Sequence record: NC_028925.1
DNA length: 64,000 bases
Direction: 5' to 3' (one strand)
Source of the DNA: Escherichia phage vB_EcoM_VR25
The notes beneath the pieces were generated by a model that was not told where the DNA came from, did not search any database, and saw only the letters and a program-made list of their open reading frames with translations. Made by a program: the position numbers and the translations under genes. Below are positions 12,328 to 15,408 of the stretch, piece by piece; positions within the stretch are counted from its first letter, which is position 1, and every line of letters starts with the position of its first letter.

Positions 12328-12564
12328 CTACTTAAATACTCCAAGTGGGACGCCGAAGATAGCGATGTCTGCGGCCATGCCAATTGGGGATTGGCATGAT
12401 GAGTAAGAACTTTTCGATTCTGTCGGGCGTTTGGCTTTAATTGTCTCGGATTCAATCTTAAGCCTTTGCACACGATTAATTTTTTGTTGCTCGATTTCCT
12501 TATGAGCGTGTTTACGGTCGATATCCTGCGCCGATGTGGGGATATTTGTTAACCAGTTCATCAT
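12328..12564 (-). CDS. hypothetical protein, about 78 aa, hydrophobic C-terminus
   Basis: Start placed at the ATGA overlap with an upstream small ORF. Confidence 0.45.
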   Translation of the reverse strand: MMNWLTNIPTSAQDIDRKHAHKEIEQQKINRVQRLKIESETIKAKRPTESKSSYSSCQSPIGMAADIAIFGVPLGVFK

Positions 12565-12737
12565 TTCCCCCATGGAGCCCACGGCGGTGGGTCGTCGTAA
12601 TATGAGGCCAGGTCGCGTAGAACTTCCATTGGGAGACTAAAACCGTGCTTCTGTATAATCGCATCAAGTTCGTCAACTAGGTCCACACGGGCTTCTGTGT
12701 GAGCTTTAGGCTCTTCAAAAAGTTCAAATAAATCCAT
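12561..12737 (-). CDS. hypothetical acidic protein, about 58 aa (hand-called)
   Basis: Hand translation [20 protein letters not shown]...; TAATG overlap upstream and ATGA overlap downstream; coordinates approximate. Confidence 0.35.
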   Translation of the reverse strand: MDLFELFEEPKAHTEARVDLVDELDAIIQKHGFSLPMEVLRDLASYYDDPPPWAPWGK

Positions 12738-13225
12738 TAGTAGCCACCGATAGGACCGTAACTATACATACGAGCACGTACCTTAGTATCATGCAGGACT
12801 TCTTCTGTTAAAGTAAAGCGCAGCCCGATATCAAAGTGTTTCCAAATCTGACGTTCGACTTCAGTAAGGTCTTCGGTAGTGGAAATCAGATAAGTGCGAC
12901 CTCGAAGACGCTCATTGGAATTCCTGTCAGTATCTTTATAGAAAATATCTGCGGTTCCTTCAGCATAAGGGTCCGGGTGACGATAACCTTTGATATGCAG
13001 GGCTTCAGACACGCTAAAAGGACAACCTTCGGCAACATCAACGTTTTTTCTATGAAATACCTTCATCATGATGTTTTCGGGCAACTTAATATCTTTTAAT
13101 CTTGTTTCCAACTCAGTAACCGAATTCATACCATTGTAAACCATGATAAGACAAGCCGTTGCATCGTAAGGTCGTGTTTGTCCGGCAGAATCACGGACAT
13201 AGAATTCTAATTCATATACTTTCAT
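12737..13225 (-). CDS. hypothetical protein, 162 aa (region of T4 mrh)
   Basis: ORF in the array; identity not recognised from sequence. Confidence 0.45.
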
Positions 13226-13367
13226 AATGTTTTCCTCTTACCGACTAATGGACCATCAGGAACTTTATTTTCCTTGATGTACTTTTCATTTTCTTCCATC
13301 ATTTTACTACCAATTTTCAAAAGCAAATCCAGTGCTTCTTTTGCCCGGCGTTCAGCCTCTTCTTGAG

Positions 13368-13562
13368 TCATGATTTATCCCCGTAGATATCACGCATCAG
13401 TTTAAGCGATGCACGTTCGGTCTTCTTTTCCTGCATGTCTTTAAGCCCGTTAGCAGCCCATTCTTCGGCTTCGCGCTGCATTTCTTCTTCGGCCCGGGCT
13501 ACCCAGGAATCATCAATTCCTGGAGTAACTAACCAATCTTTAAGCCAACTTGTAATTCTCAT
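13368..13562 (-). CDS. hypothetical protein, 64 aa
   Basis: N-terminus [15 protein letters not shown] resembles the N-terminus of the next gene. Confidence 0.45.
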
Positions 13563-13901
13563 TTAATCACACGAGCTGGAAGACGAATCGCAGCTTCCTG
13601 AATCATAGGATGAATAAGATGAATCACCAGTCCACGAACTAACCGCGGCCGCAGTCACCACAATCGAAGTAGTATCGATATGACTTGTACGGCGAGCATC
13701 CAGATGTTCTTTTAACTTTTTAGAATTCAACGGCAATGCACCTACGCCAACATTACCAGCTTTTTCTGGTTGACGAATAACTTCTTCCATCATACCATCA
13801 CCCATGTAAACATATTCTCTTAGTTTTACATCCGATGGCGCGATAGGAACTACACCTTCACCTGGTTTAGTCTTGAATAAATTCTTGAGCCAACTAATCA
13901 T
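13563..13901 (-). CDS. hypothetical protein, 112 aa, Ser-rich C-terminal tail
   Basis: N-terminus MISWLKNLFKTKPG paralogous to 13368-13562; ends SSYSSYDSGSCDSSSSSCD. Confidence 0.45.
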   Translation of the reverse strand: MISWLKNLFKTKPGEGVVPIAPSDVKLREYVYMGDGMMEEVIRQPEKAGNVGVGALPLNSKKLKEHLDARRTSHIDTTSIVVTAAAVSSWTGDSSYSSYDSGSCDSSSSSCD

Positions 13902-14115
13902 AGGAAACCTCGTTTAAATTCAACTTTACCATCATCACAACGGATTTCAATATTGAACAACGGATTTCAATATTGAATTCTAAAGAATCATCATCGTGCA
14001 TCATGAATGAATGTACGATAACCTCATCAAACACACCCAGGCCATACTTAAAATGGACATCATGAGCAATAATTTCATCTAAAGCTTTGTTTGGTTTAAT
14101 CCAACGGTTTAACAT
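13894..14115 (-). CDS. hypothetical protein, 73 aa, C-terminus altered by a 20-bp tandem duplication
   Basis: Direct repeat at 13938-13977 shifts the frame; the single-copy frame would end in a TGA overlapping the next ATG. Confidence 0.4.
   Translation of the reverse strand: MLNRWIKPNKALDEIIAHDVHFKYGLGVFDEVIVHSFMMHDDDSLEFNIEIRCSILKSVVMMVKLNLNEVSYD
13938..13977. repeat. perfect 20-bp direct tandem duplication (caacggatttcaatattgaa x2)
   Basis: Two adjacent identical 20-mers read directly from sequence, inside ORF 13894-14115. Confidence 0.9.
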
Positions 14116-14169
14116 AGTATTCTCCTCTGTAATTGAAATAATTATACCATCTCTATTAAAAGCAAAAAA

Positions 14170-14187
14170 GGGAACCCGAAGGTTCCC
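14170..14187 (-). terminator. stem-loop gggaacc-cgaa-ggttccc with T-run on the minus strand
   Basis: Inverted repeat with UUCG-type loop and flanking A/T runs, downstream of soc. Confidence 0.55.
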
Positions 14188-14192
14188 TTTAA

Positions 14193-14426
14193 TTAAACAA
14201 TATCAGTCGGCGTAAACATTGCCTCGTTTTTGGTCTTCCAGTCAGCAGCATCAGTGACTACAGTTGAGTAGGCCGCTACCGCCGAAGGGAAAGTCTGATA
14301 ATGAGCATTAGCAATACGATGCGCATTAGAATAGATTTCAAACGGAACTGAAACCTCGGTACCTTTAACTTCTTTACCTTCACCAGCTGCATGCGTAAAG
14401 GTTTTGATATTAACGAAACCACCCAT
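14193..14426 (-). CDS. soc: small outer capsid protein Soc, 77 aa
   Basis: Motifs VNIKTF ... AHYQTFPS ... AAYSTV match T4 Soc by recall. Confidence 0.85.
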   Translation of the reverse strand: MGGFVNIKTFTHAAGEGKEVKGTEVSVPFEIYSNAHRIANAHYQTFPSAVAAYSTVVTDAADWKTKNEAMFTPTDIV

Positions 14427-14462
14427 AATAACTCCTTTGTTGTTTAATTACAGGTGTATTTA

Positions 14463-14678
14463 TTACGCATATTTCTTATCAATATAAAAATGACCGCCAC
14501 CTTTGATAAAGACCCAGAATAGATTTCTATCGTCTGTATCCCGACAGTAAAAATCATCTAACTGGAAATAGTTTTCTTCAGGGAATTCAAGATGTCGGCC
14601 GAGTTCTATTGCATCAGAACCGAACGCTTTAGTAGCGGGACGACCGTCATCGTCCCATTTCTTGAAATTGAATTTCAT
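14463..14678 (-). CDS. hypothetical protein, 71 aa (position of soc.1)
   Basis: ORF in the array. Confidence 0.45.
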   Translation of the reverse strand: MKFNFKKWDDDGRPATKAFGSDAIELGRHLEFPEENYFQLDDFYCRDTDDRNLFWVFIKGGGHFYIDKKYA

Positions 14679-14887
14679 TTTGAGTGCTCAGCAATCAGTT
14701 TTAAAGTCTCTTCATTAACCCAATCGAACATGTGCATATGGTCGGATTTAACCGTAATCAATTGAGTAATATGACGGAGCTGATTAGCTAAGAGCTCTTC
14801 AACGAGCTCGTGGTCAGCATTTTTAATTAACCATTCTGCTCTCTTCTTACGAGCTTTCTTAAGCTGACGTTTATTTAAACGAGACAT
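14675..14887 (-). CDS. hypothetical basic protein, 70 aa (position of soc.2)
   Basis: ATGA/TAATG-coupled ORF. Confidence 0.45.
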   Translation of the reverse strand: MSRLNKRQLKKARKKRAEWLIKNADHELVEELLANQLRHITQLITVKSDHMHMFDWVNEETLKLIAEHSK

Positions 14888-15408
14888 TAATAACCTCGGT
14901 CCTGACGAGCAAAGTTCTCAGCATTTTTCAGGTAATACAATTTAAAGATTTCTTCAGCCGTAAGACCAAGGCCCTGGAACATATTCAGAACAAAGTGCAG
15001 AATATCAATCATTTCAAATTTAATTTCGAGCTGGTCTTCAGGAGACAAATCGTTAATCAGGGTTTGTTGCATTTCGCCATGCTGCGCTTTCCATGGTTTC
15101 CATACTGCAGATGCAGCTTTCTCACCATTAGACATGCCACCTAATGCAGTAATCAGTTCACGGAATTCATCATCGATATAATCTTTCTGGTTGCGGAGCC
15201 AGGTAACAACTTCGCCAGCAGTCGCCAGATTATCAGGGTGTTCGTTATATTCTGGTTTTTCTTTTGCTAAACGAACCTGCAATGATTTCTGCATATCAAG
15301 CATTACTTGCAGTGGGTCTTTATCTTCGTGAATCAGAGCATTAAAATATGCTTCTTCGGCTTTGTCAACACCAGCAATCAGTTGTGAACATTCATTAAAA
15401 TGTGCCAT
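14887..15408 (-). CDS. 56: dCTPase/dUTPase-type nucleotide pyrophosphohydrolase (gp56-like), 173 aa
   Basis: Size and position match T4 gp56; all-alpha MazG-like composition. Confidence 0.7.
   Translation of the reverse strand: MAHFNECSQLIAGVDKAEEAYFNALIHEDKDPLQVMLDMQKSLQVRLAKEKPEYNEHPDNLATAGEVVTWLRNQKDYIDDEFRELITALGGMSNGEKAASAVWKPWKAQHGEMQQTLINDLSPEDQLEIKFEMIDILHFVLNMFQGLGLTAEEIFKLYYLKNAENFARQDRGY

Follow-up and report, generated by a model that had tools for sequence, protein, structure and literature searches.

What do two abutting minus-strand genes for small proteins have in common, and is the serine-rich tail in which one of the proteins ends a working part of it? The question is raised by a 64,000-nucleotide stretch of Escherichia phage vB_EcoM_VR25 (NC_028925.1), hereafter the window, for which an earlier note had proposed that two neighboring open reading frames (ORFs) encode paralogs, one with an unusual low-complexity tail. 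Both ORFs are present on the minus strand at the coordinates then claimed for them and with the N-termini and tail then quoted (MISWLKNLFKTKPG... to ...SSYSSYDSGSCDSSSSSCD). They are almost certainly the T4-type early genes srh and mrh.1. Both genes are already catalogued, having been known since the T4 genome was annotated, and the Mrh.1 encoded here is identical to a GenBank protein. The features on which the argument turns are the following.

13563-13901, minus strand: mrh.1, 112 amino acids (aa), Pfam DUF7206 (PF23836), phrog_2031
13860-13901, minus strand: N-terminal amphipathic helix of Mrh.1, MISWLKNLFKTKPG, residues 1-14, with an AlphaFold2 (AF2) helix at residues 3-8
13779-13817, minus strand: core motif of Mrh.1, EYVYMGDGMMEEV, residues 29-41, a predicted beta-hairpin, with mean identity 0.88 over 52 diverse sequences
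13566-13625, minus strand: C-terminal tail of Mrh.1, DSSYSSYDSGSCDSSSSSCD, residues 93-112, with Cys104 at 13590-13592 and Cys111 at 13569-13571
13368-13562, minus strand: srh, 64 aa, phrog_2441, at the same position as in the annotation of Escherichia phage vB_EcoM_VR7
13518-13562, minus strand: N-terminal amphipathic motif of Srh, residues 1-15, aligned to Mrh.1 2-14 by hhalign

The tail of Mrh.1 and its conservation

The assignment of Mrh.1 comes from matches to Pfam PF23836 (121.2 bits, the gathering cut-off being 25.6; protein 1-112 on profile 1-107 of 107) and to phrog_2031 (3.9e-35), from identity at 112 of 112 residues with VR7 Mrh.1 (ADR32403.1), and from 46% identity with T4 Mrh.1 across residues 1-48. 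Both the family core, EY(V/I)Y(M/V)GDG(M/T)xEE, and the ...SCD end with two or four tail Cys are present. T4 Mrh.1 (UniProt P20706; PF23836, phrog_2031) has in common with it the family, the place after mrh.2, the N-terminal helix, the EYVYMGDG core and a Ser/Cys/Asp tail running to SCD. However, the T4 protein has another linker and four tail Cys (DSCGSSCDSSCSSTSCD) rather than the two found here, and in T4 mrh sits between mrh.1 and srh, genes which here abut. Two other candidates for relatives were set aside: Emp of phage AV110 (Gp94; 109 aa, early, Tevenvirinae; bioRxiv) adjoins motA and is a different gene, and a 1074-aa match from the search of representatives (P0068) is an unrelated repeat protein.

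Homologs with which to judge the tail came from a word-indexed search (46 relatives), a profile search run exhaustively against 1.84 billion representatives (38 clusters, with about 30 full-length ones and identities as low as about 35%) and a scan of viral contigs (23 loci). The serine-rich character noted earlier is a family trait, the last 20 residues being 47% S, 18% D, 12% G, 11% C and 7% Y with, family-wide, zero Glu, His, Lys or Arg. Far from being conserved in no homolog, the outcome set beforehand as telling against a functional site, the tail is kept in essentially every full-length one. All full-length members end in ...SCD (one in SCN), after a second S-C-D that usually has Y-D-S-G before it, and 93 of the 97 unique sequences end in CD or CN, the four exceptions being truncated or frameshifted. 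The Cys count within the final 25 residues is exactly two in 86 sequences and four in seven, those of the T4 type, with no Cys outside the tail in 88 of 93; a tail Cys is preceded by Ser in 185 of 200 instances and followed by Asp in 174 of 200. Spacing of the last two Cys is variable, with a range of 4-18 residues. Across the 52-sequence alignment, mean identity is 0.88 both for the last 13 residues and for the EYVYMGDGMMEEV core, and 0.32 for the linker between them.

At what level this conservation acts is answered by the codons. Those for the invariant residues vary (Ser TCG, TCC, TCT, AGC or AGT; Cys TGT or TGC; Asp GAT or GAC), and they do so also in phages in which srh is not downstream of mrh.1; such synonymous turnover excludes a purely DNA- or RNA-level constraint on the tail. 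The explanation that it bears on, hardly credible as matters stand, is that the tail is functionless low complexity, conserved through the translation-initiation region of srh or an overlapping frame. It draws on the mrh.1 stop abutting or overlapping the srh ATG and on srh having no obvious Shine-Dalgarno sequence, features which make translational coupling likely, and on the identity of the last codons, TCG TGT GAT TAA, in the closest genera. In distant phages (L011-L018, L025), however, srh is not downstream of mrh.1, and there ...SCD is kept by other codons, AGC TGT GAT, AGT TGC GAC or TCC TGC GAC. Most of the changes affect third positions of codons in the mrh.1 frame, and the rules of composition, no Glu, His, Lys or Arg and an even Cys count, are peptide-level ones. 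Constraint through srh initiation or an overlapping frame is thereby ruled out, and the sequence comparisons argue strongly that the tail (...YDSGSCDS(x)nSCD-COOH) is functional and under purifying selection at the peptide level. The earlier proposal of a modification or interaction site is to that extent supported, and such a site could serve for modification, metal binding or docking.

Two observations on DNA and protein in this vicinity are of separate interest. At 13605-13624 the tail-coding DNA contains a repeat with a 9-bp period (TCATCTTAT/TCATCCTAT, encoding SSY-SSY), and relatives are polymorphic for an indel here, some with SSYSSYDSG and others with SSYSDSG, in what is the less constrained portion of the tail. 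The product of an ORF023c-like gene (protein 12328-12582, minus strand) has ...ESKSSYSSCQSP..., echoing SSYSSYDSGSC of Mrh.1. Its Cys is not conserved, three relatives (L013, L017, L018) reading SSYNQIQSP or SSYRQTQSP, and the echo is probably coincidence.

The remainder of the protein provides the setting for the tail. AF2, run twice with 35- and 52-sequence alignments, gave a mean predicted local distance difference test score (pLDDT) of 55 and 59 and a predicted template modelling score of about 0.2, with the tail at pLDDT about 50. The only block with pLDDT of about 81 is the core, in which Y32, G34 and G36 are invariant. On these models the tail is predicted to be disordered and the whole protein, which has no confident globular fold, looks largely disordered with short conserved elements at both ends. 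From its N-terminus it reads as a helix (family consensus M-I-x-W-L-K-x-L-F, with K6, F9 and P13 nearly invariant), the EYVYMGDGMMEEV hairpin, an optional PLNSxxLKxxL..RR helix, a short hydrophobic stretch and the C-terminal tail. The stretch IVVTAAAV was considered as a transmembrane segment and rejected, with only about eight hydrophobic residues that are not kept in distant members. The linker, residues 42-85 (13647-13778), is a mosaic of at least three alternative cassettes across phages (relatives P0021, P0024, L009 and L020): one of the form ...PEKAGNVGxGALPLNSKKLKEHL..RR..., one coiled-coil-like (...KSKDLYSTMSEEDLQKRLTRLQEQRAQ...) and a third variant in T4. One relative (P0021) has both of the first two cassettes in tandem, with the N- and C-terminal modules constant. 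The pattern suggests recombination inside mrh.1.

The N-terminal motif shared by Srh and Mrh.1

The likeness of the two N-termini noted earlier is real, short and rare by chance. The best local alignment, of Mrh.1 SWLKNLFKTKPG with Srh, has a score of 28. Random 17-mers with the composition of the window attained this score in 17 of 20,000 cases, and shuffled versions of the Srh N-terminus did so in 102 of 20,000; when the N-termini of 323 other ORFs in the window were scored, just one came out comparable (29), and it belongs to a gene of the same cluster. What is shared is a motif of 12 residues, SWLK[ND]ΦΦ..PG, or W-[LI]-K-x-Φ-Φ followed by P-G, beyond which no likeness was found. A looser form, M-x(0-5)-W-[LI]-[KT], occurs in four of the 324 ATG-initiated ORFs that are 40 aa or longer in the 64 kb, all four of them on the minus strand within 12328-14115: the ORF023c-like gene (MMNWLT), Srh, Mrh.1 and Mrh.2 (MLNRWIK). 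As background, the W[LI][KT] tripeptide has a frequency of 4.4e-4 per residue. Within each family the N-terminal motif is kept across genera, most Srh relatives having (S/P)W(L/I)K(D/N)WL..P at the N-terminus. The codons differ synonymously, AGT TGG CTT AAA in srh as against AGT TGG CTC AAG in mrh.1, and constraint on the peptide with no recent duplication follows.

The earlier word 'paralogous' goes beyond this. Srh and Mrh.1 are members of separate families (phrog_2441 for the former, phrog_2031 or DUF7206 for the latter), and BLASTP of the two full-length proteins yields no alignment at E<=100. When alignments of 13 Srh sequences (A2) and 21 Mrh.1 sequences (A3) are compared by hhalign, the match is limited to 12 columns, Srh 4-15 with Mrh.1 2-14 (ISWLKNLFKTKPG), at P=0.0023 and a probability of 12.7%. 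An N-terminal amphipathic-helix motif is shared above chance, judging by these sequence comparisons, and whole-protein paralogy is not demonstrable.

That Srh and Mrh.1, perhaps with Mrh.2 and the ORF023c-like protein, are nonetheless true paralogs from tandem duplication, now eroded to the N-terminal helix, is unlikely, even with the genes adjacent and co-oriented, the motif confined to four neighboring small genes among the ORFs of the 64 kb, a low hhalign P value over its 12 columns, and small phage proteins being fast to diverge. Against it, nothing outside the 12 residues is similar, and the two families differ in length, predicted secondary structure and conserved motifs. T4 Srh does not have the SWLK core, reading KKMLEWFNRP at this place, and in the motif region the DNA of srh and mrh.1 agrees at only about two-thirds of positions and differs synonymously, a pattern not expected of a recent duplication. 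It would be just as simple to suppose that the two proteins converged on an amphipathic helix. As a separate observation on paralogy in this region, T4 mrh (2041-2526 of the T4 locus, L002) is absent both here and in VR7, the sole T4_MRH (PF24070) member in the window being modA.3 (12737-13225). T4 Mrh and T4 ModA.3 give a BLASTP E value of 1e-4 with 23% identity over 109 aa, and on this sequence evidence they would be the likelier paralog pair of the region.

Srh itself is a full member of its family. It matches phrog_2441 with E=4.3e-31 (residues 1-64 on profile 1-67 of 67), shows tblastn identities of 100% with VR7 Srh and 49% with T4 Srh, and keeps the C-terminus that is conserved in the 13-sequence alignment. 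T4 Srh, named for 'similarity to rpoH' and a postulated sigma-32 decoy, is thus alike in its full-length family match, its C-terminus and its operon, and unlike at the N-terminus, where KKMLEWF stands in place of SWLKDWL. The Srh family profile was also set against Escherichia coli RpoH. The hhalign match comprises 12 columns, Srh 16-27 with RpoH 213-224 (EDDNWEEQAANR), with a probability of 1% and P=0.053, and similarity of the two is not significant in this comparison. The label 'postulated decoy of sigma-32' remains a postulate, a widely propagated name on very thin sequence evidence.

For the shared motif a role as a membrane tag is possible, with rather more to be said against it than for it. 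The C-termini of MinD and FtsA are membrane-targeting amphipathic helices, and in E. coli MG1655 they read KGFLKRLFGG and GSWIKRLNSWLRKEF, respectively. WLKNLF of Mrh.1 resembles FLKRLF of MinD; SWLKDWL of Srh, and likewise MNWIKRFLDW of a Srh-like protein of a Klebsiella phage, resembles SWIKRLNSWL of FtsA. The W/F-L/I-K-x-Φ-Φ amphipathic pattern is common to all, and hydrophobic moments are comparable, at 0.64-0.66 for the Mrh.1 and Srh helices (Srh 0.66, in the 92nd percentile of window N-termini). However, the helix is C-terminal in MinD and FtsA and N-terminal in Srh and Mrh.1, and the resemblance is of motif and not homology.

What the tail may do

The reading of the tail that is favored, at a level of belief a little under even, is by analogy that of an arm bearing thiol or metal ligands. 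A disordered Ser/Gly-rich arm would present two Cys thiolates (four in the T4 type) flanked by Ser and Asp, together with a free C-terminal Asp. A metal ion could be chelated by the pair of Cys thiolates together with Asp carboxylates, possibly across a dimer; alternatively, the arm might insert into a site, in a host or phage partner, that depends on a thiol or a metal. Mrh.1 would be anchored by its N-terminal helix, possibly at the inner membrane, in the manner of the MinD and FtsA helices. The even number of Cys, the Asp after Cys, the invariant penultimate Cys with its terminal Asp and the spacing of 4-18 fit a flexible arm better than a rigid knuckle. A zinc knuckle or ribbon, with four Cys or His at fixed CX2C-type spacing, was rejected, as 86 of 93 sequences have two Cys, no tail has His and the spacing is variable.

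Known arms with which to compare it are those of class Ia ribonucleotide reductase (RNR) alpha, DsrC/TusE and IscS. The C-terminal dithiol tail of RNR alpha (NrdA) has the form CX2-4C-K-I/L, and read directly it is ...DDGCESGACKI in E. coli and ...ADDCAACKL in T4. The arm of DsrC/TusE carries a penultimate Cys, and the IscS loop with the Cys328 persulfide is SSGSACTS, to be set beside DSGSCDS in Mrh.1. In each a Cys lies on a disordered segment of small residues at or near the C-terminus, with acidic residues before it and the final Cys close to the end, at a distance of one or two residues. The spacing in Mrh.1 and its terminal Asp are unlike theirs, and the relation is one of analogy, not homology. 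That the tail mimics such a host 'swinging-arm' thiol peptide (the RNR alpha tail, the IscS loop or the TusE/DsrC arm), so as to trap or hijack thioredoxin or glutaredoxin, or an Fe-S or tRNA-thiolation relay, is decidedly improbable. An invariant penultimate Cys on a disordered Ser/Gly-rich arm, with a second Cys 4-10 residues upstream, and the NrdA and IscS sequences just given are what would be expected of a mimic. However, the likeness is compositional only, and the ends differ (CKI and CKL as against CD). Also improbable, if a shade less so, is a broader scheme by analogy in which the arm would mimic or join a host thiol relay (RNR/thioredoxin, IscS/IscU Fe-S or Tus/MnmA tRNA thiolation), or carry a metal or Fe-S, while a MinD-like helix, as a localization tag common to Mrh.2, Mrh.1, Srh and the ORF023c-like protein, would bring it to the inner membrane.

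A different type of account has the tail as a substrate for post-translational modification, with the first ~90 residues as leader or recognition region; the modification could be a thioether or azole as in ribosomally synthesized and post-translationally modified peptides (RiPPs), phosphorylation or nucleotidylation of Ser or Tyr, or ADP-ribosylation by ModA or ModB. RiPP precursors can have Ser/Cys/Gly-rich cores, as with McbA of microcin B17, and class IIb microcins have Ser-rich tails. Mrh.1 resembles both in that a conserved N-terminal part is followed by a Ser/Cys-rich C-terminal segment, a 'core' of RiPP-precursor-like composition. The invariant extreme C-terminus suggests recognition by an enzyme, and genes for two ADP-ribosyltransferases, ModA and ModB, lie 1.3-2.8 kb downstream. 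ModA and ModB, however, are Arg-specific and the tail has no Arg. A search of the locus for a cognate modifying enzyme, as befits a RiPP precursor, found none: the neighbors are mrh.2, soc, two small ORFs with PHROG 'head' labels, gene 56, srh, modA.4, modA.3 (T4_MRH), modA.2, modB and modA, with primase also nearby, and among them is no YcaO, lanthionine synthetase, radical S-adenosylmethionine enzyme or kinase. The family is found in many genera with differing accessory genes; the 'leader' would be ~90 aa long, and Mrh.1 is an intracellular early phage protein. On balance, modification of the tail is quite unlikely.

The favored explanation as a whole, early srh and mrh.1 genes with a shared N-terminal motif and, in Mrh.1, a selected flexible Cys-Asp arm, is evenly poised between belief and doubt. 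A number of points weigh against it. The variable Cys spacing is unlike that of fixed metal knuckles, and two Cys plus two Asp would be an unusual ligand set. The peptide likenesses to RNR, IscS, MinD and FtsA are short and compositionally simple; the hydrophobic moments of the N-terminal helices are only in the 87th-92nd percentile of window N-termini; and T4 Srh, as noted, departs from the motif. A PDB profile search with Mrh.1 brought no relative, only one chance match at E=1.5 (a capsid protein), and the literature searched contained no relevant paper on mrh.1 or DUF7206. In T4 proteomics the Srh and Mrh.2 proteins were detected, with Mrh.1 given as 'NA' (PMC9697503, supplement file 4). 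From its sequence T4 Mrh.1 would yield only very long or very short tryptic peptides, and such unfavorable peptides may be why it went undetected. PADLOC defence-system models and NCBIfam had no match to Mrh.1.

Gene order and neighboring sequence

The DNA around srh and mrh.1 is 97% identical to that of VR7 (Gaprivervirus, Tevenvirinae), and the same region matches about 300 T4-like phage genomes. Gene order, derived from the VR7 and T4 annotations plus PHROG and Pfam scans, is on the minus strand gene 56, two small ORFs, soc, mrh.2, mrh.1, srh, modA.4, modA.3, modA.2, the ORF023c-like gene, modB and modA. Around srh and mrh.1 this is the VR7 order, and T4 synteny is kept; mrh.1 comes directly after mrh.2, between soc and modB, by the VR7 and T4 annotations and at 22 related loci. 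The region is the classic dispensable host-takeover region of T4. The neighboring features are as follows.

14675-14887, minus strand: small ORF
14463-14678, minus strand: small ORF; the two match phrog_5773 and phrog_5782, labelled 'head'/'virion structural'
14193-14426, minus strand: soc, from annotation, PHROG and Pfam
14190-14167, minus strand: intrinsic terminator of soc, strong, found by a terminator scan, AAAGGGAACC-TTCG-GGTTCCCTTT + TTTGCTTTT
14149-14141, minus strand: extended -10 element TGGTATAAT, after the soc terminator and upstream of mrh.2, read directly from the sequence
13894-14115, minus strand: mrh.2, the upstream gene of what looks to be the same early operon; phrog_1873 covers residues 1-61 only
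13222-13371, minus strand: modA.4
12737-13225, minus strand: modA.3, Pfam T4_MRH
12328-12561, minus strand: ORF023c-like gene

The mrh.1 stop, TAA at 13563-13565, abuts the srh ATG at 13560-13562, and the srh stop overlaps the start of modA.4; the mrh.1 ATG has a GAGG Shine-Dalgarno sequence 6 nt upstream, and a GAGGAG one, read from the sequence, precedes mrh.2. The TGGTATAAT site was not listed by a consensus promoter scan, because of its weak -35 element, and within 14141-14190 it is likely an early promoter for mrh.2. Abutting or overlapping starts, together with the terminator, TGGTATAAT and the GAGGAG sequence, give the genes the look of a single operon, and mrh.2-mrh.1-srh-modA.4-modA.3 look like a translationally coupled early host-takeover operon between soc and modB. 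For T4, the transcripts of mrh.1, srh and mrh.2 are assigned to the early class (PMC9697503, supplement file 4), and an effect of srh and mrh on late transcription is reported both at 42 C and in rpoH mutants (PMC6070864, citing Mosig et al. 1998).

Two departures from related phages are apparent nearby. Within mrh.2, at 13937-13977, is an exact 20-bp tandem duplication (ACAACGGATTTCAATATTGA twice; Tandem Repeats Finder period 20, 2.0 copies, 100% match) that is absent from VR7, VR26 and VR20. It frameshifts the last ~12 codons of Mrh.2, giving ...EIRCSILKSVVMMVKLNLNEVSYD as against ...EIRCDDGKVEFKRGFL, and shifts the stop, which would otherwise overlap mrh.1 as ATGA, to a point 8 nt inside that gene; either a real mutation or an assembly error may lie behind it. 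Further upstream, VR7 and T4 have the homing endonuclease gene segF between soc and gene 56, where the window has instead, at 14430-14890, the two small ORFs. In a megablast search with this 461-bp stretch, no phage record covered more than 54% of it.

Neither the rules of the DUF7206 tail nor a description of the shared N-terminal motif is present in the literature searched. The Cys-Asp-Ser arm of DUF7206, by its codons under selection at the peptide level and as conserved as the family core, has apparently gone unstudied, and a MinD/FtsA-like N-terminal motif is common to four adjacent small early proteins that include Srh, with its genetic link to sigma-32. Through either of these points, a part of the T4 host-takeover region that has been functionally opaque since the 1990s might become open to experiment.

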